A stretch of 58,736 nt of DNA, from NCBI GenBank assembly GCA_964437665.1, contig CAYTHS010000004.1, forward strand, positions 1 through 58,736, given 5' to 3'. The notes beneath the pieces were generated by a model. That model was not told where the DNA came from. It did not search any database and worked only from the letters and a program-made list of their open reading frames with translations. Shown here in pieces: positions 30,723-48,101 of the stretch. Source of the stretch: an uncultured Oscillospiraceae bacterium (GTDB lineage Bacteria > Bacillota > Clostridia > Christensenellales > CAG-138). Both the position numbers and the translations under genes were made by a program. Numbering within the stretch: the first letter of the stretch is position 1; every line of letters begins with the position of its first letter.

Positions 30723-30731
30723 GACGGCGCG

Positions 30732-32021
30732 TCACCTCCAGTCGGTTTCGTTCAGGATATCGACGACTTCCTGCAGATAGCGGCAGGCGGGCGCGCCGTT
30801 GAGCACGCGGTGATCGTAGGTCAGGCAAAGATTCATCACAGGCTCGATAAACACCCCGCCGTTCTTGGCGATCGGCATGTCCCGCAGTTTGCATACGCCA
30901 AGGATCGTTGTTTCCGGCGGGTTCAGAATCGGCGTGAACGAGGTCGCGCCCGCCATGGCGAGGTTTGTGACCGTCGTGGCAGCGTCGCCGAAGTCGCTTT
31001 CGGACAGCCCGCCGCTTTTGGAGCGTGCGGCGAGGCCGGAAACGTCCCGGCAGAGCGCGCGCAGCGTTTTTTTGTCCGCATTGCGCACGACGGGAACGAG
31101 CAGCCCGCGTTCGGTATCGACCGCTACGCCGATGTGCACCCCTTCCGGCAGAAGGAAGCTTTTTTCATCATGATACTGCATCCGCACGTCCTCGCGGGAA
31201 GCGAGCGCGCGGGACACGGCAAATACGATCATCGCCGTGTATGAAAGCTTGATTCCTTCTGCTGCATAGATCGGTTTGAGCCGTCTGTACGCCGAAGCGA
31301 GCAACGCAAAGCCGCTCTCGATGCAGACGGTTGTCTGCGCGGCGGTTTCGAGACTCTTTTTCATCGCGGCGGCGGTCGCGCGCTGTACACTGTTCATCGG
31401 GACGACCTTCACGCTCGCGGGCTTGCCGTACGTTTTCACGTCCGCGACGGTCACCATGCCAAGCAGCCCGGTGCCGCGGATATGCTCGTAAGAAAGGTGT
31501 TGCTTTTCGGCGAGCATCCTTGCGCGCGGCGTGATGGAAACCGGGTGTGCGGGGGATTGTTCCTTCGGCATGTCTGCCGCGGCGCGCACGTCGTCGATTG
31601 TGATTTTCCCATCGCGGGCGGTGCCGGTCACTGTGCTTGGATCTAATCCACGTTGCTGCATGACGGTTTTTGCGCGCGGGGTGGCGGATACCGCATAACC
31701 GGCGGACGACGGTTCAATCGCCGGCTTCGGCGCGGGTGCGGATTGTACAGCCCCGTGCGAAGACGCGGGGGAGGCGGACTCGCCCGGTTCGCCGATTGAG
31801 CAGATGGGTTCCCCGCATGGCGCGGAGTCGCCGGGTTCCAAAAAATATCGAAGCATCGTGCCGTCCGCAGAGGCGACGGCGTCGTTGGTGAGCTTTTCCG
31901 CTTCGATCACGGCGATCGGATCGCCGCGTTTCACCTTGGCGCCGATGGGAACGAGCCATTCGGAGACGACGCCTTCTTCCATAGACAGCCCGAATTTGGG
32001 CATAATTTCAATCGTTGCCAT
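30732..32021 (-). CDS. Dihydrolipoamide acyltransferase (E2), AcoC-like with two peripheral-subunit-binding domains
   Basis: MPKFGLSMEEG, lipoyl motif EAEKLTND, ATPRAK and ITPRAR binding domains, GLLVPVVR, TYDHRVLNG. Confidence 0.9.
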   Translation of the reverse strand: MATIEIMPKFGLSMEEGVVSEWLVPIGAKVKRGDPIAVIEAEKLTNDAVASADGTMLRYFLEPGDSAPCGEPICSIGEPGESASPASSHGAVQSAPAPKPAIEPSSAGYAVSATPRAKTVMQQRGLDPSTVTGTARDGKITIDDVRAAADMPKEQSPAHPVSITPRARMLAEKQHLSYEHIRGTGLLGMVTVADVKTYGKPASVKVVPMNSVQRATAAAMKKSLETAAQTTVCIESGFALLASAYRRLKPIYAAEGIKLSYTAMIVFAVSRALASREDVRMQYHDEKSFLLPEGVHIGVAVDTERGLLVPVVRNADKKTLRALCRDVSGLAARSKSGGLSESDFGDAATTVTNLAMAGATSFTPILNPPETTILGVCKLRDMPIAKNGGVFIEPVMNLCLTYDHRVLNGAPACRYLQEVVDILNETDWR

Positions 32022-32108
32022 TTTTTGCCCTCCCTGGGCGCGTATTTGTACTCGCGATGAAAAAAACGGGCCGAGGATGCGTTTCATCGCTGCCAAACGA
32101 CCGCCTTT

Positions 32109-33086
32109 TTAGAACGCCGCAATCTCTTTTGCGGCGCGTACAACGTCCGCAGACCTGAGCATATAATAGTCTTCGAGCACAGGCGCGAATGATACCGGCA
32201 CATCCAGGCACGTCACGCGTGCAACCGGCGCGGCGAGGTATTCAAAGTATTTTTCACCGATCATGGCGGAAATCTCCGCCGCCCAGCCGCCGACCTTCGG
32301 GCCTTCCTGCGCGATCACGAGACGCCCCGTCTTTGCGACCGACGCGGCGATCAGTTGCTCGTCGTAGGGCTTGATCGTGCGCAGATTGATCACTTCCGCC
32401 GAAACGCCTTCCTTTTCGAGTTCAGCTGCGGCTTTAAGCGCCATGCCGACGGTGATTTGCAGCGCGGCGATAGTCACGTCCGTGCCCTCGCGCTCGATCA
32501 CCCCCTTGCCGAGCGGCAGGGTATAGGGTTCCTCCGGCACGTCGCCCTTTGCGTTAAGCAGCATTTTATGCTCCAAAAAGAGCACCGGATCATCGCTCCG
32601 GATGGCGGAAATCAAGAGTCCTTTGGCTTCATACGGCGTGGCGGGGGAAACGATCACGAGGCCGGGAGTGCTTAAAAACCAGCTTTCGACCGTCGCGGAA
32701 TGATGGTAGGCGCAGCGGATACCCGCGCCCTGCGGCGCGCGGATGACGACGGGGCAGTTCGCCTCGCCCTGAAACATGAAGTTGAGCTTGGCGGAGCTGT
32801 TGACAATCTGGTCGAACGCAACGCCCGCGAAGTCCGCAAACATGATCTCCGCGACGGGCCGCAGCCCCGCGATGGCTGCGCCGTTTGCAAGGCCGACGAT
32901 TGCCGACTCGGAGAGTGCAGTGTCGAAAATGCGGTCCGGCCAGCGGTGATAGATGTTCTGCGTCAGGCCGAAATCGCCTCCCATTTTGGCGACGTCCTCG
33001 CCGAGCACGAACACGGAATCGTCCCGTTCCATCTCTTGGATCAGGGCTTCGTTGATCGCCTTGGTATAGGTCAGTTTGCGGCTCAT
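32109..33086 (-). CDS. TPP-dependent 2-oxoacid/acetoin dehydrogenase E1 beta
   Basis: VLGEDV, DTALSESAIVG, PVAEIMF.DF, HHS..VE, DDPVLFLEHK. Confidence 0.92.
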   Translation of the reverse strand: MSRKLTYTKAINEALIQEMERDDSVFVLGEDVAKMGGDFGLTQNIYHRWPDRIFDTALSESAIVGLANGAAIAGLRPVAEIMFADFAGVAFDQIVNSSAKLNFMFQGEANCPVVIRAPQGAGIRCAYHHSATVESWFLSTPGLVIVSPATPYEAKGLLISAIRSDDPVLFLEHKMLLNAKGDVPEEPYTLPLGKGVIEREGTDVTIAALQITVGMALKAAAELEKEGVSAEVINLRTIKPYDEQLIAASVAKTGRLVIAQEGPKVGGWAAEISAMIGEKYFEYLAAPVARVTCLDVPVSFAPVLEDYYMLRSADVVRAAKEIAAF

Positions 33087-34066
33087 CGTTCCACCTCCAC
33101 CGTAAATCCTTCGTATACGTGCGAAACCGCTTCCGAAACGTCCGGTACGGGGCTTTCGATCGAGAAACGCAGCATTTCTTTTATCTGCGCGTCTACATCG
33201 CCCTCGATGGCCCCGAGTTCTTCTTCGGATACTTTTTCGCGTTCCTTAAGTACGTTTCTCGTGAGCAGCACGGGGTCGCGCTTTTTCCAGTAGGCGAGCT
33301 CTTCTTCCGGCCGGTAGGAGGCGGGGTCTCCTGCAAAGTGCCCCTGCCATCGGTAGGTAACGAACTCGATCAGCGACGGGCCGCCGCCGCTTCTGGCGAT
33401 CTGCACCGCCTGTTCCGTGGTTTCGACGACGGCTTCCACATCGTTTCCGTCCACACGCCACGAAGGCACGCCGTAGCCGTCCGCCCACTGGCGCAGTTCT
33501 TGCTGCGGGTGCGCGGTGCCGCAGGGCGTCGAGATCGCGTAGCCGTTGTTGATGAGGCAGTAGACCACCGGCAGTTTCCAGGTTGCGGCCATGTTCAGGC
33601 TCTCGTGGCAGGTGCCTTCACCAAGCGTTCCATCGCCCATGAATACGGCGGAAACGTCGTCCGTGTGGCGGTATTTGGCCGCGAACGCCGTTCCGAGCGC
33701 GGTGACGACGGTCGAACCCTGAATGCCGTTGAAGCCGTGATTCCGGCAGGACCAGTCGTGGATATGCATGGAACCGCCGCGGCCGCCGTTGACGCCCGTG
33801 GCCTTGCCGAAAATCTCGGCCATAACGTATTTGGGATCGGTTCCGCATAAAAGAATCGCCCCGTGGCCGCGGTGGTCGGGGTATTTGTAGTCTGTTTTTC
33901 TCAGCGCGCGCACCACGCCCGCCTGACAGGCTTCCTGCCCGGTGGAAAGGTGCACGAAACCGGGGATGGTGCCGTTCGCTGCATATTCCTTGATCACGTC
34001 TTCAAAATTGCGGATCAAAAACATATCGCGGTAAAGTCCCTTGAGACGCTCTTTTTCCAATGCCAT
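33083..34066 (-). CDS. TPP-dependent 2-oxoacid/acetoin dehydrogenase E1 alpha
   Basis: PGFVHLSTGQEA, HRGHG, GRGGSMH, GDG..GEG...ESLNMAA.WKLPV....NN, TYRW.GH..GD. Confidence 0.92.
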   Translation of the reverse strand: MALEKERLKGLYRDMFLIRNFEDVIKEYAANGTIPGFVHLSTGQEACQAGVVRALRKTDYKYPDHRGHGAILLCGTDPKYVMAEIFGKATGVNGGRGGSMHIHDWSCRNHGFNGIQGSTVVTALGTAFAAKYRHTDDVSAVFMGDGTLGEGTCHESLNMAATWKLPVVYCLINNGYAISTPCGTAHPQQELRQWADGYGVPSWRVDGNDVEAVVETTEQAVQIARSGGGPSLIEFVTYRWQGHFAGDPASYRPEEELAYWKKRDPVLLTRNVLKEREKVSEEELGAIEGDVDAQIKEMLRFSIESPVPDVSEAVSHVYEGFTVEVER

Positions 34067-34287
34067 AATCATTCCTCCGATTTCAGATGCTCGACGCTGT
34101 CTGCGGTTTCTATAGATTCCCCGCGCGGCGCAGAAATGCCGGAGCGGGCGTTGTATGCATAAGAGGTGTGGCTGCCGGATGGGCGAGAACCGCTGTTTTG
34201 CGGCGCGGCGCCGCAGATACGACCGATAAGATTTTTAATGGAGAGACGTATTTTTGAATGGCTGGCGCGAATGTATCGCGCCAGCCG

Positions 34288-35217: not shown

Positions 35218-35229
35218 GCACATTTGTGC
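35218..35229. promoter_or_regulatory. Palindromic candidate operator GCACATTTGTGC
   Basis: Lies in the second divergent promoter region and shares its core with 15881-15894. Confidence 0.5.
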
Positions 35230-35321
35230 ATGTTTATCCATTCCTGCTGAAATGGGGCTGTTTTTCACGCAGGATTACGGTAGAATCATGTATATACTGT
35301 TGGAGAGGCGGTGAGCGGGCG

Positions 35322-35651
35322 GTGCGCAGAGTGACGCGGCATCCCGTGATAGAGATTGAACCGAAGGCTGAAATAACGATTGTTGCAGACGGAAAAACGC
35401 TGTATGCGCACGAGGGCGAAACCGTCGCCGCTGCATTGAGCGCCAACGGTATACGCGTGTTCCGGCATACGGCGAAACGGCACGAGCCACGCGGGATTTT
35501 CTGCGGGATTGGCCAGTGTACGGACTGCGTGATGGAGATCGACGGCGTTCCGAACCGGCGCGCGTGCATGACGATCGTGCGAGAAGGCATGGTCGTCAAT
35601 ACGCAGCAAGGTAACGGGAAATGCGGGGTAGGATGCGATGCAGATGTATGA
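35322..35651 (+). CDS. (2Fe-2S)-binding protein, HcnA / sarcosine oxidase alpha N-terminal-like
   Basis: GETVAAAL..NG, PRGIFCGIGQCTDC.M.IDG.PN.RAC. GTG start. Confidence 0.88.
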   Translation: MRRVTRHPVIEIEPKAEITIVADGKTLYAHEGETVAAALSANGIRVFRHTAKRHEPRGIFCGIGQCTDCVMEIDGVPNRRACMTIVREGMVVNTQQGNGKCGVGCDADV

Positions 35652-36723
35652 CGTGATCGTCGTCGGCGCGGGACCGGCCGGCCTCGGCGCTGCCATCGAA
35701 GCGGGAAAACATGGTGCAAGCGTGCTGCTGCTGGATGAAAATGCGCGTCCCGGCGGACAGCTCTTCAAGCAGATCCACAAATTCTTTGGATCCAGGGAAC
35801 ACTATGCGGGCACGCGTGGGTATGCCATCGGTCAAAACCTGCTTGCCGAAGCGGACGCGCTCGGCGTGGAGTTCCGGCTTGGCATGCGCGTTTGGGGCGT
35901 ATACCCGTACGGCGGCGTGTCCGCGACGGACGGTGAAACGAGCGTGCGTTTTTTTGGAAGGAAAATCATCCTGGCAACGGGCGCGTCTGAAAACGCGTTG
36001 AGTTTTCCCGGCTGCACGCTGCCCGGCGTGATGACCGCAGGCGCGGTGCAGACTATGGTCAACGTCCAGCATGTGCTGCCTGGAGAGCGGTTTGTGATGA
36101 TCGGCTCCGGCAATGTTGGGCTGATCGTGGCGTATCAGTTGCTGCAGGCGGGTGCGGAAGTTCGCTGCATCCTCGAAGCCGCGCCCAGAATCAGCGGTTA
36201 CGGTGTGCACGCGGCGAAGGTCAGGCGCGCTGGCGTGACGGTTTATACAGGGCGTACCATCGTCCGCGCGAACGGCAAAGACGGCGTGGAAAGCATCGTT
36301 ACGGCGGAAGTAGACGCGTGTTTTTGCCCGGTTGGAGGCACGGAAAAGACGATTGAATGCGACACGGTCGCGCTGGCGGTCGGACTTTCGCCGAGGATCG
36401 AGCTAGCAGGCGTGAGCGGCTGTGAAATGGCGTATTCAGCCGCACTCGGCGGCATGCTGCCGCTGCATAGCGACGATATGGAGACGACCTGCGAAAACAT
36501 GCTGATAGCGGGCGACCTTGCCGGCATCGAGGAAGCGAGTACGGCGCTGGACGAAGGCCGCATGGCGGGCTGCCGCGCGGCGTATCTGCTCGGCTGCCTG
36601 ACAAAAGAAGAATACGAAAAGGAAAAACGCGCGCTGCTTTCCCGGCTGAACGCGCTGCGGGCGGGGCCGTTCGGGGAAAAACGGCGTACGGCCAAGGAGG
36701 CTCTATGGAACACGATGCGGTGA
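35638..36723 (+). CDS. FAD/NAD(P)-dependent oxidoreductase, HcnB / opine oxidase A / proline dehydrogenase alpha-like
   Basis: VVGAGPAGLGAA, GGQLFKQ, ILATGASE..L.FPG.TLPGVM, IAGD.AGIEEA..A..EG. Confidence 0.88.
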   Translation: MQMYDVIVVGAGPAGLGAAIEAGKHGASVLLLDENARPGGQLFKQIHKFFGSREHYAGTRGYAIGQNLLAEADALGVEFRLGMRVWGVYPYGGVSATDGETSVRFFGRKIILATGASENALSFPGCTLPGVMTAGAVQTMVNVQHVLPGERFVMIGSGNVGLIVAYQLLQAGAEVRCILEAAPRISGYGVHAAKVRRAGVTVYTGRTIVRANGKDGVESIVTAEVDACFCPVGGTEKTIECDTVALAVGLSPRIELAGVSGCEMAYSAALGGMLPLHSDDMETTCENMLIAGDLAGIEEASTALDEGRMAGCRAAYLLGCLTKEEYEKEKRALLSRLNALRAGPFGEKRRTAKEALWNTMR

Positions 36724-37028
36724 ACGCCGAGATCGTCTGCCGCTGTGAGGAAGTCACTGCGGAGGAGATCATGGAGGCGATACGAAACGGCGCGGATTCG
36801 CTGGACGCGGTGAAGAGAGCCACGCGGGCGGGGATGGGATTCTGTCAGGGGCGCACCTGTAAGCGGCTGATCGCGCGCATGCTTTCCTGCTATTATGAAA
36901 TGCCGGTCGACCGGTTTTTACCGGGGAGCCTGCGTTTGCCGGTCGCGCCGGTCAAGCTCTCGCTGCTGGCGGAAACTGAGGATGTGCAGAACGGGAAAAC
37001 GGAGGACGGCGCATGCGAAAAATCCTGA
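36705..37028 (+). CDS. BFD-like [2Fe-2S]-binding protein
   Basis: IVCRCEEVT, KRATRAGMGFCQGRTC, R.PV.PV. Confidence 0.88.
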   Translation: MEHDAVNAEIVCRCEEVTAEEIMEAIRNGADSLDAVKRATRAGMGFCQGRTCKRLIARMLSCYYEMPVDRFLPGSLRLPVAPVKLSLLAETEDVQNGKTEDGACEKS

Positions 37029-37441
37029 TCGACTGCCGGGAAAGCATCCCATGTGATCCCTGCCGCTATGCTTGCCCCGCACATGCTATCGTGATCGAGG
37101 GCGACATTACGAACCTGCCGCAGGTGTTTCCGGAGCGCTGTACGGGCTGCGGGCTTTGCGTTGCGGCGTGTCCCGGCCAGGCGTGTTTCTTGGTGGACGA
37201 GTATTACGCCGAGGGGCGTGCAAGCGTGGATTTCCCTTACGAATACCTGCCGCTGCCCGAGGTGGGTATGCGCGTAACTGCGCGGGACAACGACGGTTGC
37301 GACGTATGCGAAGCGCTCGTGGAACAGGTGATTTTGCGCAAAAGCGCACAGAATACAGCCGTCGTGCGCGTGAGCGTGCCGAAAGAATTCGCATTCCACG
37401 TGCGCGGCATGAAGCCTCTCCGCTTTCGGGAGAGGGAATAG
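37013..37441 (+). CDS. 2x[4Fe-4S] ferredoxin-domain protein
   Basis: C..SIPCDPC..ACP and CTGCGLCVAACPGQA, plus the C-terminal PYEYLPLP..G domain. Confidence 0.88.
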   Translation: MRKILIDCRESIPCDPCRYACPAHAIVIEGDITNLPQVFPERCTGCGLCVAACPGQACFLVDEYYAEGRASVDFPYEYLPLPEVGMRVTARDNDGCDVCEALVEQVILRKSAQNTAVVRVSVPKEFAFHVRGMKPLRFRERE

Positions 37442-37709: not shown

Positions 37710-37871
37710 TAGGGTGTGTTCCCAAAATCACAAAAGCGCATTACCGCCGCTTCAACTTGCATATTTTTGTTGAAAAGCCGCGCCGCAGCACCACTGCGCC
37801 TGTGTTTTTCGTCTCAACCTTCAAGCCGATCCAGCAAAACTGCATCTTTCAGGCTTTAAAACACACCTCAG
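37710..37871. mobile_element. MITE-like family 2, copy 1 (162 bp)
   Basis: Terminal inverted repeats TAGGGTGTGTT...AACACACCTCAG. Body is closely similar to 51257-51419. Confidence 0.75.
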
Positions 37872-38057
37872 GGGCATAATAGAGAAGATATCTCGTTTGC
37901 ATTCGATAAAAAAGCAGTGTGGATTCGGATATTACCGCGTCTTCGCCTGCTGCTGGCTCGGTCGGCAGGCACACAGAATCTACGGTCGAACATATATCAC
38001 GCGACGGTCCGGCTGTCAGTGCCCGGGGAAATAATAGGGAAGATTTCCCGTTTACAC

Positions 38058-38086
38058 TCGACAGAAAAACGATTCCTGATTAAAAT
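38058..38086 (+). promoter_or_regulatory. sigma70-type promoter for the giant-protein operon
   Basis: TCGACA-N17-TAAAAT about 100 nt upstream of ATG at 38185. Confidence 0.55.
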
Positions 38087-38184: not shown

Positions 38185-41100
38185 ATGGACGAACGCAACA
38201 CCGGGTTTGGCACGGCCGACGCGTTTTACGCGGAGTTTGCCAAAAGCGCCGGTATTCCGGTCAGGCAGATGCGTGCGCTGGCCGCGCGGACGGATTTCGG
38301 CAAAGGGTATAAGCGACTGTGCGGCGGCAGGATTTCCTGCAGGGAGGCGGCCGTGCTCTGCGAACCGATAGTAAAGCACATCGGCGGGATGCCGGAAGAA
38401 GGGATGCTGACTTTTGCCTACGAGTCGCTTTCCGCGGGGCTTTACCCTTATTCAGGTGCGCCGAAAACGGACAGGACAAAAAAAAGCGCGCTGCGTTTCT
38501 TTCTTGCGGTGCTTGCTAAGCTGCTAGACACGGAACGGGAAAATGCGTTCGACCCACTGCTTGACTATATACCCGTTACCATGGCCGAGATTGAAAAAAG
38601 CCCGATCGCCGAACAGTGCGCTAGGTTTTCTGAATCGATCAAGCGAAGCGGTTACCGCGAATTGCTGCGCATCGGACGTGAGATCATGCCTTTCGATCCG
38701 GCGGGGCATACGTTCGGCGTGCGTTACGTTGCGCTGCATATGGCGCGCCAGGCGGAAACATGCGGACTGCCCGTGGACGTGGCGCTTGTCGGCGCGGCGG
38801 CCCTGGCGCACGATATCGGAAAGTTCGGCTGCCGCGGCGAGGACATGCCGCGCATTCCGTATCTGCATTACTATTATACATGGAAGTGGCTCGAGGACGG
38901 CGGGATGCCGGACATTGCGCACATTGCGGCGAATCATTCCACTTGGGACCTCGAATTCGAGAACCTGCCGATTGAGTCGCTTCTGCTTATTTACTCGGAT
39001 TTCCGCGTGCGCGCCGAGCGGACGGCGGACGGCGAAAAAGCGGTGATTTGTACGCTCGCCGAGGCACGCGAACGTATCTTTAACAAGCTGGCGGACATGA
39101 CGCCACAGAAACGGCTCCGTTACGAAACAGTCTACAGCAAGCTCGACGATTTCGAACGTTTCATGCAGTCCAAAGGCGTGAACACCGATCCAAGCGACGA
39201 AACGCTGCACGCCGCGGACGTTCGAGACCCGGCGCTGCTTTCACAGGGCGAGGTCGTGCGCGCGCTTTGCAACCACGCGTTCGATAATAACGTCCACCTG
39301 ATGCATACCATTACCGTGAGCGATTCGTTTGAAGCGCTGCTCGAACAGGCGCGCGCGGAGAAAAATCTTAGCCGCATTCGTACCTATCTGTTGCTTTTTG
39401 AAGAATACAGTACCTATATGACCCGAACACGAAAGCTGCTCACTCTCCGTTTTCTATATGAATTGCTTATGCATCACGACGGCGACGTGCGTAGGCACGC
39501 GGGGCGCATCATGGGGGACATTCTCGCAAACTCCGGTCCGCGCTACCGCAAGGAACTGCCGCGCGGTGCAGGCGCGCTGGCGATCGCCCCCGCACTGCAT
39601 GCGGTGCTCAGCGAGTCCACCACGCTTTGGGACGAATACATCGAGCTTTGCCTGCATCCGGACTACAGGATTTCGCAGAAGCATGCCGCTCGCATTTCCA
39701 ACTCGCTCAAGACCATCGCTGGGAGTCTGTTCGCCAGCTGTCTGCCCGAAGAACGGCGCGGATACTGGGAAAAGCTGTTCCATCGTATCCTTTCGAGCGG
39801 AAGCGACGACCTGTTTGCGCTGATGGACACGCTTCCGCACGTGCCGGAGGCGGCGATTACGCGCGGCGAGGCGCAGCGCATGCTGCCGATCCTTTCCGCG
39901 GCGGCGTCGTCGCTCGAGGTGCGGGTACGCATCTGTGCGCTTCGGAGCCTGAGCGCCGTGGCAGACGGGGACGCGGCGCTTCTTAAGAGCGCGCTCGAGC
40001 TGGTGCGCCTCCCGCAGGATGCGGAATTTGCGTCTGTTTGGTTCGTCAACCGGCTGCGGAAAAAGGCGGGGATGCCGGCTCTGCCCGTACCGGCGCTGCC
40101 GATTGCGGAGATCTATCTTTCCAATCTTAAAAGCAGCGTTCCCTGGATGATGAAACTTGCGCAGATCGACCGGCTCTGCGATTATGTGCGTGAATTCCCC
40201 GCCGAAGCGTTCCATGCGGCCATGCACCTTTCCAACCTGCTTTCGGTGAGCGAACACCTGCCGGTCCGAGAACGGGCTGGCGAGGCGCTGGTGGAGGTGT
40301 CCGGACATCTGAGCGTAGATCAGCGCAACGAAATCATGATCGACCTGCTGCGCGAACTGGAAACCGGACAGAACGAGATATCCGGCTACATTCCGCCGTA
40401 TCTCGGCCAGTTGATCTGCGGCGTGCCGGAAAAGGAGATGGACGAAGGCATCGATTATCTCGAAGCGCTGATCCGTGCCTCCAACACGCGCGCGGCGCGC
40501 GCGGCGCTTTCGACGCTCTGCACTGTGCTCTCCGTTTACGTGAGCGAAAACAGCGCACGGATGAATGCGATGAGCGAACGGGTCTTCGGTCTGCTGCTAA
40601 CCGGCGTGGGGCACTTCGACGACGGGATACGGCTTACCGCGCTGGAGGTGATCTGCCGCAACTACTTCGCCAACGGTGCCTGTCCGCTGCAAGCGCGGCG
40701 TGCCGGTCTCGTCCGTTTCGGGAAAAAGCTTCTGACGCTGCTTGGCGAACGTCGGGACGGCATGCTGGCATTTTTCAACGAGGCGGCCATGCTCAACCAT
40801 CTTTACCGCTTCATCACGCTTTGCGAAACCGGCGGCGGGTTTGCCTATCCGCCGCTCAAGCCCGTCGCGTTTTTCCCCGGCACGTTCGATCCGTTTTCCG
40901 CCGGCCACAAGCGTATTGTGGAGGAAATCAAGGGACGCGGGTTCGAGGTGTACCTCGCGGTGGACGAATTTTCCTGGAGCAAGCGCACGCTGGCCAAGCT
41001 TATGCGGCGGCAGATCGTGAGCATGAGCGCCGCTTCTCTGCCGGACGTGTATCTTTTCCCCGACGATATCCCCGTCAATCTTGCCGTGCCGGACGATCTG

Positions 41101-42843
41101 TCGGACCTCTGCGCGCTGTTCCCCGGCAGGGAACTGTTCATCGTCGCGGGAAGCGACGTGGTCCTCAACGCGAGCGCCTACCGGCAGGGCGGCACAGACA
41201 CGGCACCGTATTACAACCACATTCTTTTTACGCGCGTGGAAGCCGCGCATACCGACGATCCGCGCCGGGCGGAGGATATCCTGAAGGGCAAGATTGTCTC
41301 TCTTACGCTCCCGGCGTACTACGAATCCGCAAGCAGCACGCAGATACGCGACTACATCGACAAGGACATCGACATCGGCATGCTGGTCGATCCGGTTGTG
41401 CAGGATTTCATCTATGCGCGGGGACTGTACCTGCGTATGCCGCAGTACAAGCGCAAACTCAGCGCGTCCGCGTCCGGCGGATTCGAGGTGCGCGAGGCGG
41501 CCGGTGTATATGATGCGACTGCAAGGGACGCTTCCGGCGATGCGCTTTCGCGTATCCGGGCAAAGAGCATCGGCGTGACCGACCTTTACGACGCGCTCGG
41601 GGGCAGGCGCACGGCGGCGGAGGCCGTACGGCGCTTCGCTTCGGGCAGAATACTCTTAATCGAGCGGACCGAGGGACGCGGGGAAGAGCTGCGCGCGCTG
41701 CTTTGCGGCCTGTTGGCGCGCTCGCTGAAAAACGAACACACCTATGCGCTCTACCGCTGTGAAAACGAAGCCGACCGCGCCGCCGCGCTGCAGACGGGGT
41801 TTTTACCCGTGCCGGGGGCAAACGATCTTCTCTGCGCGGATATGCGCGCGCCGCTGGTGCTGATCGAGGATGCGCTCCAGCGCATCAAAGAACCGTTTGC
41901 CGGTGACGAAGCTGTCCGCGAGGCTGTCGTTTCCGCGCGCCCCCCGCTGCGGCAGGCCATCGCCAGTATGTTTCCAGGCAAGCTGCTGCTCTGCTTCGAT
42001 ATGGAGGCCATCAATACCGGGCTGATCGAAAAGGTGCGCGCGCGCAACGGCGTTTCGTCCGTTTCGCCGGGGGACAGGCGGCTCGGCAAATATATGTGCG
42101 TTCCGTACGGCAAAATCCTCGCGGATACGATCGTACCCAACACGGTGACCAAAGCGCTTCATGTAGACAAGGTTTTCCGCGCGGACGAAAGCGGATTCGA
42201 CATCACCGAATCGCCGGGGTATTCTCCCCTTGCCAATCAGGTAAAAACGCTCAAGTCGTTCCGCAGGCCTGTGCTCCTGATCGACGATTTACTGCACAAC
42301 GGCTACCGGCTCGAAAAGCTGGACCCGTTGTTCCGCGAACAGGGAGTTGAGATCGAGCGCATCATCGTCGGCGTGCTTTCCAGCCGCGGGCTCGACCTTA
42401 TGCGCGAACAGAAACGCGAGGTAGACTGTGAATACTTCATCCCCAACATGCAATACTGGTTTACCGAGAGCCTGCTGCTGCCGTTCCTTGGCGGGGACAG
42501 CGTCTCCGGAGAAATCGGCGTACGTGATTTTCCGCCGAGCATCAACCTGATACTGCCGTATCAATACCCGAAATACCTGCATGGCGCGCCGCCGCCGGCC
42601 GTGCGCCAGTTCTCGCGCGTGGCGCTCAAAAACGCGCTGACCGTGCTGAGCGTGCTGGAGGAGCGATACCTCAAGCTGCAGGGCACGGGGCTGACGCTGC
42701 GCAGGCTTGGCGAGGCGCTTCTGCGTCCGCGTCTGCCGGACAAGGGCGCGCACGTGCAGTACGATCTCAACGCAATGGCGACGGCGTATATCCGCGACGA
42801 TATCCGCCAGATGCGGCGCATCTCCAACGCGGAGGATGTTTGA
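38185..42843 (+). CDS. Large multidomain protein: HD phosphohydrolase, helical repeats, NadD-like cytidyltransferase, degenerate GNAT-like region, PRTase-like domain
   Basis: HD set GHT..V, AHDIGK, H, NHS, YSD. NTase motifs FPGTFDPFSAGH, AGSD, SASSTQIR. PRTase loop VLLIDDLLHNG. 1552 aa from ATG at 38185 (GGAGAGG RBS). Confidence 0.8.
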   Translation: MDERNTGFGTADAFYAEFAKSAGIPVRQMRALAARTDFGKGYKRLCGGRISCREAAVLCEPIVKHIGGMPEEGMLTFAYESLSAGLYPYSGAPKTDRTKKSALRFFLAVLAKLLDTERENAFDPLLDYIPVTMAEIEKSPIAEQCARFSESIKRSGYRELLRIGREIMPFDPAGHTFGVRYVALHMARQAETCGLPVDVALVGAAALAHDIGKFGCRGEDMPRIPYLHYYYTWKWLEDGGMPDIAHIAANHSTWDLEFENLPIESLLLIYSDFRVRAERTADGEKAVICTLAEARERIFNKLADMTPQKRLRYETVYSKLDDFERFMQSKGVNTDPSDETLHAADVRDPALLSQGEVVRALCNHAFDNNVHLMHTITVSDSFEALLEQARAEKNLSRIRTYLLLFEEYSTYMTRTRKLLTLRFLYELLMHHDGDVRRHAGRIMGDILANSGPRYRKELPRGAGALAIAPALHAVLSESTTLWDEYIELCLHPDYRISQKHAARISNSLKTIAGSLFASCLPEERRGYWEKLFHRILSSGSDDLFALMDTLPHVPEAAITRGEAQRMLPILSAAASSLEVRVRICALRSLSAVADGDAALLKSALELVRLPQDAEFASVWFVNRLRKKAGMPALPVPALPIAEIYLSNLKSSVPWMMKLAQIDRLCDYVREFPAEAFHAAMHLSNLLSVSEHLPVRERAGEALVEVSGHLSVDQRNEIMIDLLRELETGQNEISGYIPPYLGQLICGVPEKEMDEGIDYLEALIRASNTRAARAALSTLCTVLSVYVSENSARMNAMSERVFGLLLTGVGHFDDGIRLTALEVICRNYFANGACPLQARRAGLVRFGKKLLTLLGERRDGMLAFFNEAAMLNHLYRFITLCETGGGFAYPPLKPVAFFPGTFDPFSAGHKRIVEEIKGRGFEVYLAVDEFSWSKRTLAKLMRRQIVSMSAASLPDVYLFPDDIPVNLAVPDDLSDLCALFPGRELFIVAGSDVVLNASAYRQGGTDTAPYYNHILFTRVEAAHTDDPRRAEDILKGKIVSLTLPAYYESASSTQIRDYIDKDIDIGMLVDPVVQDFIYARGLYLRMPQYKRKLSASASGGFEVREAAGVYDATARDASGDALSRIRAKSIGVTDLYDALGGRRTAAEAVRRFASGRILLIERTEGRGEELRALLCGLLARSLKNEHTYALYRCENEADRAAALQTGFLPVPGANDLLCADMRAPLVLIEDALQRIKEPFAGDEAVREAVVSARPPLRQAIASMFPGKLLLCFDMEAINTGLIEKVRARNGVSSVSPGDRRLGKYMCVPYGKILADTIVPNTVTKALHVDKVFRADESGFDITESPGYSPLANQVKTLKSFRRPVLLIDDLLHNGYRLEKLDPLFREQGVEIERIIVGVLSSRGLDLMREQKREVDCEYFIPNMQYWFTESLLLPFLGGDSVSGEIGVRDFPPSINLILPYQYPKYLHGAPPPAVRQFSRVALKNALTVLSVLEERYLKLQGTGLTLRRLGEALLRPRLPDKGAHVQYDLNAMATAYIRDDIRQMRRISNAEDV

Positions 42844-42847
42844 ACCT

Positions 42848-44089
42848 ATGAAGTATTACCGCTATTGTTCGTTCTGCCTCTGCCAGGCCGGCGGAGCACT
42901 CCCGGAAGGCGCTGAACCCGCAGACGAAGCGTTTACGCCGCTCGTCTTCCTTGTGGAACGCGACCCGAAGCAAAGCCGCGGATACTATGCGATACGCAGC
43001 CTTTCCGAACGAAGCGAGCCGGAAGGCGCGAACCTGCTGCTGCCTGCATGCCCGGCGAAAGAAAACGGCGCGCTCGCCCGATTGGTAAGTGCGAACGGCG
43101 CATGTGTGATCAACACGGCGTTTTCGCGTGGTTTCGACGTGCTGCAATATTCGGCCGTGCGTGCAAACGTGCGAAAAAAAGTCTGTCTGGTCGGCCTTGG
43201 CGACGTTGGCGGAGCGGTGCTCACCGGACTAAAACTTCTCGGTACGGATTTGTCCGAAATCGGCCTTTACGATCCGGACGGCAAGAGATGCGCCCGCTAC
43301 GAGGCGGAGTTGAATCAGATTCTGCCCGTACGCGGTGGCGAAGCGCTTCCGGAAGTGAAAATCGTGTCCGAAGCGGAATTATTCGATTGCGACGCGCTGA
43401 TCTTCACCGCGTCACGCGGTGTGCCGCCCGTCGGCAGGGAAGCGGGCGACGTGCGCATGGCTCAGTACGCCGCCAACCGCGATATGCTGCGCGCCTACGC
43501 GCACCGTGCGCGGAAAAGCGGCTTTTGCGGGCTGTTCTGCCAAGTGTCCGATCCGGTCGATCAGCTCGCACGCGCGGTGTTTTTGATGAGCAACGAAACC
43601 GATACGGGAGAGTTCGACGCGAACGGGCTTCTGCCCGAACAGGTGCGCGGATTCGGATTAGGCGTAATGCGTGCGCGCGCGGTTTATCTTGCGAAAAGAC
43701 AGGGGATACCGGCGGAAGCGTTCTGCGCGTTTGGACCGCACGGCGCGGGGCTTGTGATTGCGAACGCGCCGGAAGAGGGGTACGACGACGCGCTTTCAAG
43801 GCGGCTCACCGAAGAAACGGTGCAGGCCAACCTATCCATCCGCGCGCTGGGGTATAAGCCGTATATCGCGCCCGGACTTTCTTCGGCGGCGATCTCGATA
43901 CTGCGTGCGCTGCGCGGCGAATGGCACGACGCGGCGATTCCCGGGGGCGGGGTGTACTTCGGCTGCGAAACGCGCCTGACGAAAAACGGGTCCGAGCGCA
44001 GGCGACGCGGGCTCGACCCGGCGCTGTATGCGCGGATTAAGGAAAGCTGGCGGCGCTTAAAGGAGTTTGATGCGGCATGGACGAACTGA
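42848..44089 (+). CDS. Lactate/malate dehydrogenase-fold protein with N-terminal extension
   Basis: VGLGDVGG, IGLYD, DALIFTAS, VRMAQ..AN, VSDPVD, GPHG. Start is 42848 or 42836. Confidence 0.8.
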   Translation: MKYYRYCSFCLCQAGGALPEGAEPADEAFTPLVFLVERDPKQSRGYYAIRSLSERSEPEGANLLLPACPAKENGALARLVSANGACVINTAFSRGFDVLQYSAVRANVRKKVCLVGLGDVGGAVLTGLKLLGTDLSEIGLYDPDGKRCARYEAELNQILPVRGGEALPEVKIVSEAELFDCDALIFTASRGVPPVGREAGDVRMAQYAANRDMLRAYAHRARKSGFCGLFCQVSDPVDQLARAVFLMSNETDTGEFDANGLLPEQVRGFGLGVMRARAVYLAKRQGIPAEAFCAFGPHGAGLVIANAPEEGYDDALSRRLTEETVQANLSIRALGYKPYIAPGLSSAAISILRALRGEWHDAAIPGGGVYFGCETRLTKNGSERRRRGLDPALYARIKESWRRLKEFDAAWTN

Positions 44090-45126
44090 TCGTCATAACG
44101 GCAGGCCGAAGCGATCGCCTGGACGAGACGCTCCGCTTTGCGCTTTCCGGTATACCGCATGCAACTGCGGACGCTGGGAACGCGCTGCAAAATCTCGCCG
44201 GGAGGCGGGTGCTTTTTGCGCTCGCGGCAGACGAAGCGGGTATGAGCAAAAGCACGTTTTTACTGATCGCCGCGCTGCGGCGGAAGTCGTGTGCGATGGA
44301 AGGCTCGATTGCCGGGATCCTGCTTGACGGTGATGGCGAGCTTTATACCAAGCAGACCGCAGACCAGCTTGCGTTGGCGGCAAACCTTGCCGGCTGCATC
44401 TTTCCGGGAAGACCGCTTGTGGAGGCGACCGGTTCGCTGGCCAACTGGCGTGTGCAGGGAAAGCGCCGGGATGTGGAACCAGCGGAAGCCTATCGGCTCG
44501 CCGCGCGCGAGCTCGTCATGCGGCTGGCGGCGTTTGAAGCGCCGCGGTTTGCAAAACCGAAAATACTGATGCTCCACGCGTCGGACAAGGGGACTTCCAA
44601 TACGCTGCAGATCGGGTCGAACGTCTGCGGGCGGCTGCGAGGCCGGTTCGACGTGCGGGAGTTGTCGCTGCAGAACGGTACGATTTACGATTGCCGCGGC
44701 TGCTCGTTTACGACCTGCGCACACTACGCCGCGCAGAATTCCTGCTTCTACGGCGGAAGCATTGTCAGCGAAGTATATCCCGCGCTGATGGCGTGTGACG
44801 CGTTGCTGCTGCTCTGCCCGAATTACAATGATTCCGTGAGCGCGAATATCATGGCGTTCATCAACCGCCTCACGAGCCTTGTGGTGTTCAATCCGCCCTA
44901 CGATAAATATCTTTACGCCGTCGTTGTTTCGGGTTACAGCGGGGGCGACCTTGTGGCGCAGCAGACGCTCGGCGCGCTTTGCCTCAACAAAGCGTTCATG
45001 CTGCCGCCCCGTTTTTGCCTGTTGGAGACGGCCCATTATCCCGGTGAAGCGATGCGGTCCGCGAATATCGAAAAACGCATCGACGCCTTTGCCGAAGGCA
45101 TCGCGAATACGCTGATTGCCCGATGA
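44077..45126 (+). CDS. Tandem flavodoxin-fold / iron-sulfur flavoprotein-like NAD(P)H oxidoreductase
   Basis: C-terminal half: LHAS...SNT, DCRGCSFTTC...NSC, DALLLLCPNYN.SVSANIMAFINRL. N-terminal half is a degenerate flavodoxin-like repeat. Overlaps the LDH-like stop. Confidence 0.75.
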   Translation: MDELIVITAGRSDRLDETLRFALSGIPHATADAGNALQNLAGRRVLFALAADEAGMSKSTFLLIAALRRKSCAMEGSIAGILLDGDGELYTKQTADQLALAANLAGCIFPGRPLVEATGSLANWRVQGKRRDVEPAEAYRLAARELVMRLAAFEAPRFAKPKILMLHASDKGTSNTLQIGSNVCGRLRGRFDVRELSLQNGTIYDCRGCSFTTCAHYAAQNSCFYGGSIVSEVYPALMACDALLLLCPNYNDSVSANIMAFINRLTSLVVFNPPYDKYLYAVVVSGYSGGDLVAQQTLGALCLNKAFMLPPRFCLLETAHYPGEAMRSANIEKRIDAFAEGIANTLIAR

Positions 45127-45473: not shown

Positions 45474-46190
45474 ATGAAATTTGTAAACACAAACATGTTT
45501 ACCGAGGCCTTTATTCGCGAGAACATCATGGGACCGAATCCTGCAAAACTGCTGGAAGAGACGATTCACCGTTACCCGGTCGAGCGCGGGTCGGTCGTGC
45601 TTGACCTTGGCTGCGGCAAGGGGGTTACGTCCGTTATGCTGGCGAAGGAATACGGTCTGCGAGTGTTCGCAACCGACCTTTGGATTCCGCCGACGGAGAA
45701 CTGGGCGCGCTTCCGTACGTTTGGTCTCGGCGCGGACGAGATCGTCCCCGTCTATGCGGAGGCGCATGCGCTGCCGTACGCCGAGGCGTTCTTCGATGCG
45801 GCCGTCTGCATCGATGCATATCAATACTTCGGTATTGACCCTGCGTACCTCGGCAAACACCTGCTCCCGCTCGTTAAGCGCGGCGGCATACTTCTTTTCG
45901 TCGTGCCGGGGATGAAACGCTGCTTTGGCGGTGATTATCCGCAGGAAATGCTGCTTTCATGGACAAAGGAAGACCTTGCAACGCTGCGCGCGCGCGAATT
46001 CTGGATTGAAAACCTTTCGCACACAGAGGAAGCGGAGGTGCTCGACGTCTGGGAACTGCAACACTTTGACGAATGCTGGAACGACTGGCTGGCGTGTGAA
46101 AACGAACATGCTATACAGGACAGGCCTTCGATGGAAGCCGGCGCCGGAAAACACATGAATCTGCTGGCCATGGCGCTGCGCCGGAAATAG
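45474..46190 (+). CDS. Class I SAM-dependent methyltransferase
   Basis: VLDLGCGKG motif I, A..LPYA..FFDA..C.DAYQYFG, LVKRGG. Confidence 0.9.
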   Translation: MKFVNTNMFTEAFIRENIMGPNPAKLLEETIHRYPVERGSVVLDLGCGKGVTSVMLAKEYGLRVFATDLWIPPTENWARFRTFGLGADEIVPVYAEAHALPYAEAFFDAAVCIDAYQYFGIDPAYLGKHLLPLVKRGGILLFVVPGMKRCFGGDYPQEMLLSWTKEDLATLRAREFWIENLSHTEEAEVLDVWELQHFDECWNDWLACENEHAIQDRPSMEAGAGKHMNLLAMALRRK

Positions 46191-47086: not shown

Positions 47087-47234
47087 GGTTTTGCCCCGAT
47101 CGACGCGTATTTTTGTCTATTATAATCGCTGAAACAAAAAAAAGCCAGCAAACGCCGTTTATAAAATCTCTTTACATAGAAAGAAAAAATGTTTAATATA
47201 GTACAACAAACCAGATAAGGAGGTGGGAAACACA

Positions 47235-48101
47235 ATGTCGTTTCAGATTTTTACCGATTCTTCAGCAAATCTGTTTGAGGATGAGGTAAACCGACTCGGA
47301 CTCAAGATCGTTTCTCTGACGCTTTCGATCAACGAGGACGAGGTGCTTTGCTACGGGCCGGGCGCGCCGTTCGACTTCGATGCGTTTTTCAAGCGCATGC
47401 GCGAGGACGGAACACTTGTACTCAAAACATCCATGATCAATACGAGTGCGTTTTTAGCTGCATTCGAGCCTGTTTTGCAGGCGGAAATGGATGTGCTCTG
47501 TCTTACGATGTCATCCGGACTCAGCGGGACCTGGTCGGGCGGGCAAAAAGCCGCCGATATCCTGCAAAAGAAGTATCCGGAGCGCGAAATACGCGTGGTG
47601 GACACGCTTTCCGCGACCATCGGCGAGGGCCTGCTTGTGCGCGAAGCGGTGGAGATGCGCAACGGCGGCAAGACCGTTTCGGAGATTGCCGCGTATATCG
47701 AGCAGCGCAAAACACAGCTCCGTCAGTTCTTCATGGTGGACGATCTCAACTTTCTCAGGCGCGGCGGCAGGCTTTCCGGCAGCGCGGCGCTGGCGGGATC
47801 GATCATGCATCTCAAGCCTATCCTGAAAGGCGATGAAGAGGGGAAAATCGTTCTTGACCGGAAACTTTTCGGCAGGAAAAAGGCGCTCGCGACGCTTGTT
47901 GAGGTTTTCTCCGAACTGCACGGCGAACGGACGGAAAACCGGCGTTTCGGTGTTTCGCACACCGGCGCGGAAGAGGAGGCACACCTGCTTGCGGCGCAGA
48001 TCATCGACCGTTATCCGGGCGCAGGGGCGGACATCGTGCCGTTTGAACCTTGTACCGCGTCCCATGTTGGCCCTGGGGCGGTGGGGTTGTTTTTCTTTTG
48101 A
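47235..48101 (+). CDS. degV: DegV/FakB family fatty-acid-binding protein
   Basis: IFTDSSANL, KTS.IN, SSGLSGT, VVDT, VDDLNFLRRGGRLS, HVGPG. Confidence 0.93.
   Translation: MSFQIFTDSSANLFEDEVNRLGLKIVSLTLSINEDEVLCYGPGAPFDFDAFFKRMREDGTLVLKTSMINTSAFLAAFEPVLQAEMDVLCLTMSSGLSGTWSGGQKAADILQKKYPEREIRVVDTLSATIGEGLLVREAVEMRNGGKTVSEIAAYIEQRKTQLRQFFMVDDLNFLRRGGRLSGSAALAGSIMHLKPILKGDEEGKIVLDRKLFGRKKALATLVEVFSELHGERTENRRFGVSHTGAEEEAHLLAAQIIDRYPGAGADIVPFEPCTASHVGPGAVGLFFF

Follow-up and report, generated by a model that had tools for sequence, protein, structure and literature searches.

A giant protein with HD, NadD-like and phosphoribosyltransferase-like modules, encoded with two redox proteins, is recurrently associated with ammonium-assimilation genes in Clostridia

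Several characterized systems provide points of comparison for the protein described here. In the NadD-YqeK units of Firmicutes a HIGH-class adenylyltransferase of the NadD fold and an HD metal-dependent phosphohydrolase are united, while GlnD and Rel/SpoT share a logic in which a nucleotidyltransferase and an HD hydrolase are followed by C-terminal sensor-type domains. Citrate lyase ligase (CitC) carries a GNAT-like domain together with a HIGH-class nucleotidyltransferase and is, to our knowledge, the sole characterized protein type that joins these two folds. The layouts of all of these systems are echoed in the predicted product of a single gene that we analyzed in a contig of 58,736 nucleotides, referred to in full as the window, from an uncultured Oscillospiraceae bacterium (assembly GCA_964437665.1, contig CAYTHS010000004.1). 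This giant gene (P0001; 38185..42843, + strand) encodes 1552 amino acids and is the first of a cassette of three genes, the other two of which encode a divergent dehydrogenase-fold protein (partner 1) and an iron-sulfur flavoprotein (partner 2).

The open reading frame of the giant gene is intact, with ATG at 38185, TGA at 42841-42843 and GGAGAGG located 5' of the start. Two AlphaFold2 models built on alignments of orthologs gave predicted local distance difference test (pLDDT) values of 88.8 for residues 1-890 and 88.2 for residues 880-1552, and in an alignment of 39 orthologs the mean column identity is 49% for the N-terminal half and 55% for the C-terminal half. These models and the profile searches firmly establish a predicted five-module protein with conserved catalytic-type residues in the HD, nucleotidyltransferase (NT) and, in part, phosphoribosyltransferase (PRTase)-like modules. 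A preliminary description made from the letters of the DNA had named an N-terminal HD domain with a full set of metal ligands, a helical-repeat middle, a HIGH-class nucleotidyltransferase, a degenerate GNAT-like stretch and a PRTase-type loop, and all five calls passed profile and/or fold tests. It had also held that no characterized protein has this combination; comparison with the literature and databases likewise gave no counterpart, and no papers were found that deal with the name of the family or with the combination of domains. When the Protein Data Bank (PDB) was searched by sequence, a profile of the whole protein returned only weak matches to PPAT/NMNAT, HD and HEAT proteins, and a profile of the C-terminal 463 residues returned none. 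The architecture is without a characterized counterpart.

The N-terminal HD phosphohydrolase domain (residues ~170-330; 38692..39174, + strand) is assigned from Pfam and from conservation. PF01966 matches residues 174-254 with 23.4 bits, above its cut-off of 22, and the predicted metal ligands H175, H209, H228, H251 and D272 are invariant in the 39 orthologs, with D210 conserved in at least 90% of them. The corresponding motifs are H175 itself, H209-D210 within HDIGK, H228, NHSTWD (H251) and YSDFRV (D272). By analogy, this ligand set is probably that of a binuclear HD phosphohydrolase, of which it is typical. Motifs were also counted over 96 full-length orthologs with strict patterns, so that all such counts are lower bounds; HD[IVL]GK and NHSTWD were each found in 88 of the 96, the misses being mostly errors in the choice of open reading frame. 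Alignment of the HD domain by hhalign with the YqeK of the same genome extended over only 36 columns around H...HD at a probability of less than 1%, which indicates no specific likeness. The HD domain is followed by a predicted ARM/HEAT-like alpha-solenoid of ~550 residues (~350-882; 39232..40830, + strand). The N-terminal half of the protein is all-helical in the model, being all-alpha from ~290 to 882, and Foldseek searches of the PDB matched the solenoid to armadillo/HEAT proteins (E 2.6e-7).

The NadD/NMNAT-like domain of the HIGH class (residues 890-1085; 40852..41439, + strand) is assigned from Pfam, NCBIfam, Foldseek and hhalign results. PF01467 covers residues 896-1055 at 25.6 bits (cut-off 21), and the motifs include GTFDPFSAGH at 899-908, DEFSWSKR, GSD at 989-991 with Y999 eight positions on, and SSTQIR at 1050-1055. 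Within the first of these, the HIGH-type (H/T)xGH motif for ATP appears as SAGH (905-908), its first His being changed to Ser. This first motif is found in at least 86 of the 96 full-length orthologs, its final residue always being His, and the ISST-type motif in at least 88. With the C-terminal half of the model as the query, the 50 best Foldseek matches listed from the PDB are all NadD/NMNAT proteins, with E values down to 3e-8 and target-relative template-modeling (TM) scores of 0.6-0.8 (0.7-0.8 for the top matches). Similarly, hhalign aligned the domain with the genome's own NadD over 178 columns at 96.8% probability, whereas the genome's own PPAT was aligned over just 32 columns. The alignment with NadD pairs SAGH with HSAH, GSD and Y999 at +8 with GSD and Trp at +8, and SWSKR with PPHKR. 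The ATP site and an acceptor pocket of the mononucleotide type therefore look intact, the latter because the ATP motifs, the ribose-binding GSD and a stacking aromatic residue at +8 are kept and SKR, with the basic residue of the PPHK loop, stands for HKR.

The next module is a predicted GNAT-like fold (residues ~1100-1234; 41482..41886, + strand), assigned from the model, hhalign and Foldseek searches of BFVD, a library of viral structures that is smaller than the PDB and in which both the GNAT and the PRTase folds are visible. The BFVD matches for this region are GNAT proteins (probability 1.0, TM 0.63, root-mean-square deviation 2.8-6.5), and viral CitC is among the fold matches. Alignment by hhalign with a profile of the genome's own GNAT proteins reached 50% probability (E 1.6e-4) as compared with at most 0.2% for controls. 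The stretch is degenerate, as had been supposed, in that the acetyl-CoA pyrophosphate loop (Q/R-x-x-G-x-G/A) is not conserved, the aligned positions ~1160-1170 being variable and gap-rich across orthologs, and PF00583 gave a weak match in just 1 of the 39 orthologs.

The C-terminal module, a type I PRTase-like domain with additional C-terminal helices (residues ~1242-1552; 41908..42840, + strand), contains the motifs CVPYGK, TVTKALH and RPVLLIDDLLHNGYR. The loop LLIDDLLHNG (1364-1373) includes the acidic pair D1367/D1368, which is invariant and lies in VLLIDD, and CVPYGK and TVTKxLH are further invariant PRT-like loops. With the strict pattern, the loop with its acidic pair is found in at least 71 of the 96 full-length orthologs. 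The Pribosyltran family (PF00156) matches the loop (1361-1417) at 12.9-14.7 bits, below its cut-off of 26.3, and it does so in 10 of the 39 orthologs, each time on the loop. In BFVD the region matched Hpt (E 9e-4, probability 0.99), the orotate phosphoribosyltransferase domain of UMP synthase (probability 1.0), APRT and phosphoribosyl pyrophosphate (PRPP) synthetase, with probabilities of 0.84-1.0, and the order of secondary structures in the model fits the PRTase fold. Alignment by hhalign with the genome's own PRTases gave E 0.0026 over 122 colinear columns (controls, E 0.04-0.2). The preliminary description had taken this module for a ligand sensor. Contrary to such a sensor-only reading, the PRTase-like domain may be catalytic, because the acidic pair that binds the ribose of PRPP in active type I PRTases is kept. 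Xanthine PRTase likewise has no Thr residues in its phosphate loop, and hence the absence of Thr is no proof of inactivity, although we take this as a lead only.

The giant protein is one of a large family. Among 5.8 billion proteins ~800 matches were obtained; the 120 that were listed are relatives over the full length, with 1500-1640 amino acids, and databases name them only 'hypothetical', 'cytidyltransferase-related domain protein' or, in one source, 'NaMN adenylyltransferase'. The relatives are 37-88% identical to the window's protein over the whole length; with ~800 homologs of this kind chance is excluded, and such identity over 1550 residues indicates strong selection on the cassette. 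As had been recommended, distribution and neighbors were surveyed. With one genome per species in GTDB, the gene is present in at least 574 species of the Christensenellales, Oscillospirales, Anaerovoracaceae and Lachnospirales, and cultured carriers include Anaerovorax odorimutans, Hominibacterium faecale, Anaerotignum neopropionicum and Faecousia intestinalis. In an even sample of Clostridia, 25 of 399 genomes (~6%) and 19 of 217 genera carry it. One family (f47) has the gene in 26 of 70 genomes, and presence differs inside two genera. The giant gene is thus accessory but strongly constrained.

A profile of the GNAT-like and PRT-like region matched 557 clusters among 1.84 billion representatives, all of them in the giant-protein family. 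Some members of this family, of 1050-1300 amino acids, have no HD domain, and many of these retain the PRT-like loop and CVPFGK but have a degenerate NT motif (xxRD or xxKD for xxGH). In one member of 1714 amino acids that has the HD domain, it is instead the PRT loop that is degenerate. The PRT-like module therefore looks like the common core of the superfamily, as judged from these sequences. When genomes of the whole class were searched with an HD-less query, all members recovered were full-length. Some carriers depart from the usual pattern. One Christensenellaceae chromosome (OY762290.1; L003 and L004) has two full copies of the cassette gene, and at two other loci (L057 and L074) the open frame is longer, 2179 and 1912 amino acids from stop to stop, which may be an N-terminal fusion or merely an open upstream frame. 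Another genome (G140, locus L122) has a second, very divergent copy of 1686 amino acids that matches no Pfam family and lacks the partner genes; a DAGK/YegS-like (lipid-kinase-like) gene lies 3' of it and BipA is also in its context, which is uninformative.

The giant gene is translationally coupled to the genes of partners 1 and 2. Partner 1, a divergent protein of the lactate/malate dehydrogenase (LDH/MDH) fold with 413 amino acids (42848..44089, + strand), starts 4 nucleotides past the stop of the giant gene, and partner 2, an iron-sulfur flavoprotein (Isf)-like protein of 349 amino acids (44077..45126, + strand), overlaps partner 1 by 13 nucleotides. Among the 80 best loci the LDH-like gene lies 3' of the giant gene in 66 and the flavoprotein gene in 65, and no other neighbor is common to more than 11. 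Both partners are present at 19 of the 20 loci in an independent, evenly drawn sample of genomes (eight families), the lone exception being a divergent second copy in one genome. Partner 1 conserves GxGxxG, DVRM with the loop Arg, SDPVD, and GPHG with a catalytic-type His; GLGVMRAR replaces the Asp-containing motif, so that the Asp of the His-Asp pair is lost. Its N-terminal ~100 residues are variable, it falls far below the LDH/MDH cut-offs, and the homologs listed for it are close cassette members only. Partner 2 consists of an N-terminal domain of ~160 residues without an assigned family and a flavodoxin-like FMN_red domain, the latter with a conserved CxxC and two further Cys residues 4 and 8 positions on, as in iron-sulfur flavoproteins.

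The cassette is recurrently associated with genes of ammonium assimilation. Within the fetched flanks, 28 of 100 loci have asnB, type III glutamine synthetase (GS), gdhA, amtB or a split glutamate synthase (GOGAT), as compared with a chance expectation of ~1-3% of loci, a rough estimate that assumes three or four such loci per 3-Mb genome. The neighbors include asparagine synthase B (asnB, 599 bits against a cut-off of 499) and NADP-glutamate dehydrogenase (gdhA, 648 bits against 536); a type III-like glutamine synthetase of 700 amino acids (glnN) forms a recurrent neighbor cluster, and amtB and a three-gene split GOGAT were neighbors found in the independent sample. The nitrogen genes occur in at least 10 distinct arrangements in several families, and therefore the association is not one inherited synteny block. 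For example, glnN-asnB can immediately precede the cassette on its strand, asnB-glnN can follow it in either orientation, and gdhA is found upstream, either divergent or on the strand of the cassette, or else 3' of the third gene.

We tentatively propose that the cassette encodes a three-protein complex that makes and hydrolyzes a nicotinamide adenine dinucleotide (NAD)-like adenylylated nucleotide and is tied to nitrogen assimilation, a reading that we place first while holding it at well short of even confidence. The substrates, complex formation, direction of the chemistry and physiological role given here are those that we infer. The giant protein would be the large catalytic and scaffolding subunit, associated with an NAD(H)-binding protein of the LDH fold and an Fe-S flavoprotein. 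Its PRTase-like domain would bind PRPP or a ribose-5-phosphate compound and might form a mononucleotide, the NadD-like domain would move AMP from ATP to the phosphate of that compound to yield a dinucleotide-type product, and either this product or a phosphoanhydride related to it would be hydrolyzed by the N-terminal binuclear HD domain. Both redox partners would dock on the HEAT solenoid; they could make use of the nucleotide, modify it by redox chemistry or link it to nitrogen assimilation that depends on NAD(P)H.

Several observations weigh against this proposal. A nitrogen neighbor is absent at 72 of the 100 loci, and the window's own cassette does not lie beside nitrogen genes, which sit on another contig (C5, 10507-19347) as an island of asnB and a 700-residue GS on the - strand and a split GOGAT and a 412-residue GS-like gene on the + strand. 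The NadD-family models score only 19-30 bits against curated cut-offs of 112-187; for the giant protein the equivalog NF000840 gave 29.6 bits (cut-off 150) and TIGR00482 gave 19.2 (cut-off 112.45; 23 bits in the genome search). The PRTase-like loop reads LHNGYR, is devoid of the usual Ser/Thr-Gly-Thr phosphate binders and scores below the Pfam cut-off. In addition, the survey of neighbors at the loci found no gene for making a special base that accompanies the cassette, and the degenerate NT motifs in the HD-less paralogs imply that the NT fold can persist without catalysis.

The main rival is a nitrogen-status sensor-regulator in the style of GlnD or RelA-SpoT, which we consider unlikely though by no means negligible. 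The NadD-like domain would write, and the HD domain erase, a signal in the form of either a small nucleotide or an adenylyl mark carried by a target protein, with the GNAT-like and PRTase-like domains sensing glutamine, glutamate, 2-oxoglutarate or PRPP and the partners reporting NAD(P)H or redox state. The combination of an HD domain, a nucleotidyltransferase and C-terminal domains of a ligand-binding type is the general layout of GlnD and Rel/SpoT, and surroundings that include asnB, glnN, gdhA, amtB and GOGAT are typical of nitrogen regulators. A GNAT-like domain without a conserved acetyl-CoA loop and paralogs that lose the NT motif yet keep the PRT-like loop also fit a sensory role. The preliminary description had suggested a writer-eraser that makes and degrades a nucleotide product or reversibly nucleotidylates a target; these paralogs, and the recurrence of the cassette beside ammonium-assimilation genes, where one would look for GlnD-type logic, would be consistent with such an enzyme. 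On the other side, HIGH-class NadD-like enzymes are generally known only as small-molecule enzymes, and the cassette contains no candidate target gene. The upstream sequences likewise give the regulator no support, as neither GlnR/TnrA boxes nor sigma-54 promoters were found upstream of 69 orthologs, and a search of the upstream region against Rfam at E <= 1 gave no relevant riboswitch or leader.

The distribution of PII bears on the same question. Canonical PII is encoded in 160 of the 399 sampled genomes, in 1 of the 25 carriers of the cassette as compared with 159 of the 374 others (p = 6e-5), a strong contrast that favors the regulator. Within family f47, however, the contrast shrinks to 7 of 26 carriers versus 22 of 44 non-carriers (p = 0.08), and the window's genome has both the cassette and PII, the latter in an amtB-PII pair on contig C80. 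Because the within-family contrast is weak, the class-level contrast is largely phylogenetic; the negative association of PII with the cassette is weak, and we do not accept the cassette as a replacement for PII. An apparent avoidance of type III GS (2 of 25 carriers versus 274 of 374 others) was also set aside as phylogenetically confounded; it is contradicted by 10-11 loci that have the 700-residue GS adjacent to the cassette, and all carriers have some GS. Several cassette-bearing genomes (G242, G320, G344, G217, G362, G163, G043 and G067) have as their only GS-like gene a form of ~640 residues, with a score of just ~120-147 bits against the GSI model and, at E <= 1e-60, no match to the 700-residue type III enzyme. 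The most far-reaching version of a regulatory role, which taken as a whole we regard as quite unlikely, is that the cassette is a new nitrogen-status device that controls GS, GOGAT, glutamate dehydrogenase (GDH) and AsnB in Clostridia that mostly have no canonical PII/GlnD. In such a device the NadD-like domain would write and the HD domain would erase an adenylylated signal, which could be an adenylyl mark or an NAD-like dinucleotide of a new kind, with ligand inputs through the GNAT-like and PRTase-like domains and redox inputs through both partners.

Two loci suggest a different role for the partners. At L107 (7918-13236) and L113 (11243-16446), the giant gene is separated from the partner genes by amtB, on the opposite strand, and by three GOGAT genes on the strand of the operon. 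This split GOGAT is of the archaeal type, its genes encoding GATase_2, Fer4 plus Glu_synthase, and GXGXG domains, and no gltD-type subunit was seen in these two spans, although no search aimed at gltD was made. The partners might act as a redox module that feeds electrons from NAD(P)H into a split GOGAT without a beta subunit, or into GDH-linked metabolism, with the giant protein as a regulated scaffold. The partners at both loci are directly 3' of the three split-GOGAT genes, the N-terminal 2x[4Fe-4S] domain of the flavin mononucleotide (FMN) subunit of GOGAT would suit an Fe-S partner, the flavoprotein has a conserved four-Cys cluster and an FMN site, and the same split GOGAT is found in the window's genome. 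GOGAT is, however, near just 3 of the 100 loci, LDH-fold enzymes pass hydride to 2-oxoacids and not to flavins, and the conserved catalytic-type motifs of three nucleotide domains would be left unexplained, all of which make an electron-input module improbable.

That the giant protein is a plain adenylyltransferase of nicotinate or nicotinamide mononucleotide (NaMN/NMN), that is, a second NadD with decayed accessory domains, is highly improbable. It is true that the NT domain matches NadD/NMNAT best, both by fold and by profile, and one source annotates a NaMN adenylyltransferase. The reading is disfavored because the genome has its own NadD-YqeK, a separate NadD fused to a YqeK-type HD domain that scores 152 bits on TIGR00482 (cut-off 112), and the giant protein was rejected as the housekeeping NadD on this ground. 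Moreover, conservation of the accessory domains equals that of the NT domain (mean column identity 49-55%, with invariant HD ligands and PRT loop), and the gene is obligately coupled to two partner genes. The housekeeping fusion (L081) occupies one reading frame at ~4494-5700 of contig C2, and the genome thus holds two separate combinations of an NT with an HD domain; it also encodes PPAT, RibF, CitC-like and TmcAL-like proteins. Equally improbable is an anti-phage defense or NAD-reconstitution system: pairs of a PRTase and an NMNAT do occur in phage NAD-rebuilding pathways and the gene is patchily distributed even inside genera, but the neighbors are genes of core metabolism, including housekeeping nitrogen genes, and not defense islands or mobile elements, and conservation is high with an architecture stable across orders. 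In addition, PADLOC matched neither the giant protein nor the flavoprotein, its sole result for the three cassette proteins being a 12.8-bit match of the LDH-like protein to E1-E2, and the earlier suggestion of a role in phage defense was rejected.

The sequence 5' of the cassette has a terminator-like hairpin after the preceding operon, followed by a spacer of ~600 nucleotides. A repeat search found two direct copies of a 43-nucleotide element on the + strand, one at 37871..37913 with the short palindrome GAGAAGATATCTC and a second at 38026..38068, 79% identical, with the palindrome GGGAAGATTTCCC. The palindrome is preserved by compensatory changes (GAGA...TCTC versus GGGAA...TTCCC), and the core pattern of the repeat occurs twice in the window where 0 are expected; the repeat is absent from related loci and private to the window's genome. 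The only promoter-like site upstream of the operon is a sigma-70-like candidate, TCGACA-17-TAAAAT (38058..38086, + strand), with just 10 of 12 matches to the consensus, and because repeat copy 2 overlaps its -35 element, this copy may be an operator. As to expression, the window's organism was found in sludge and wastewater metagenomes in which the runs are DNA only, and low-level transcripts are seen for one cultured relative, Anaerotignum neopropionicum, whose giant and flavoprotein genes have identical contigs of low depth in a metatranscriptome.

The other genes around the cassette belong to more local contexts. The preceding operon (35226-37441), whose products are an opine/sarcosine-oxidase-like set of Fer2_4, Pyr_redox_2, BFD-like [2Fe-2S] and 4Fe-4S proteins, adjoins the cassette in the closest relatives only (L001, L005 and L032). 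A 2-oxoacid dehydrogenase E1 alpha gene lies at 33083-34072 on the - strand and is followed by three open reading frames (29331-33086, - strand) of the sizes expected for E1 beta, E2 and E3, an assignment by size only. Downstream, a class I S-adenosylmethionine (SAM) methyltransferase gene (45474-46190) and a DegV-family gene (47223-48101) are common to close Christensenellales relatives only and lie outside the conserved unit.

The carriers of the cassette are Clostridia of the gut, rumen, sludge and sediment, and the cassette joins three nucleotide-enzyme folds that normally serve the synthesis of NAD and nucleotides with two redox proteins. Should the product of the proposed three-protein complex be a new dinucleotide cofactor or signal, it would be a new molecule for the biochemistry of anaerobes. 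If the cassette has a regulatory role, it would help to explain nitrogen sensing in Clostridia without PII/GlnD, which is poorly understood.

How the cassette compares with known systems depends on the component considered. Partner 1 shares with L-lactate and malate dehydrogenases an NAD-binding domain, the loop Arg and a catalytic-type His, and departs from them in the missing Asp of the His-Asp pair and in its variable extension of ~100 residues. Partner 2 shares with Isf the FMN_red fold and the compact four-Cys motif, and differs in its additional N-terminal ~160 residues. The C-terminal module of the giant protein has the predicted fold and the VLLIDD acidic-pair motif in common with the type I PRTases (Hpt, Apt, PyrE and Xpt) and with PurR and PyrR; unlike these it has LHNGYR for (S/T)-G-x-(S/T), ends in additional helices and follows a GNAT-like fold in the same polypeptide. 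In comparison with CitC, the order of the two domains is opposite, the NT domain is nearer to NadD, and there is no citrate lyase context. The likeness to GlnD extends to the genomic association of the cassette with ammonium-assimilation genes, whereas the transferase is of the Rossmann-type HIGH class and not of the pol-beta type, and Pfam and NCBIfam scans of the giant protein found no ACT, TGS or pol-beta-type domains. Nor does a PII gene adjoin the cassette, and canonical PII is absent from 24 of the 25 carriers in the class sample. No characterized system has more than two of the seven domains of the cassette. The nearest characterized system is NadD-YqeK, from which the giant protein differs in its reversed domain order, with ~550 residues of HEAT repeats in between, in its additional GNAT-like and PRTase-like domains, in its two redox partners and in its membership scores.

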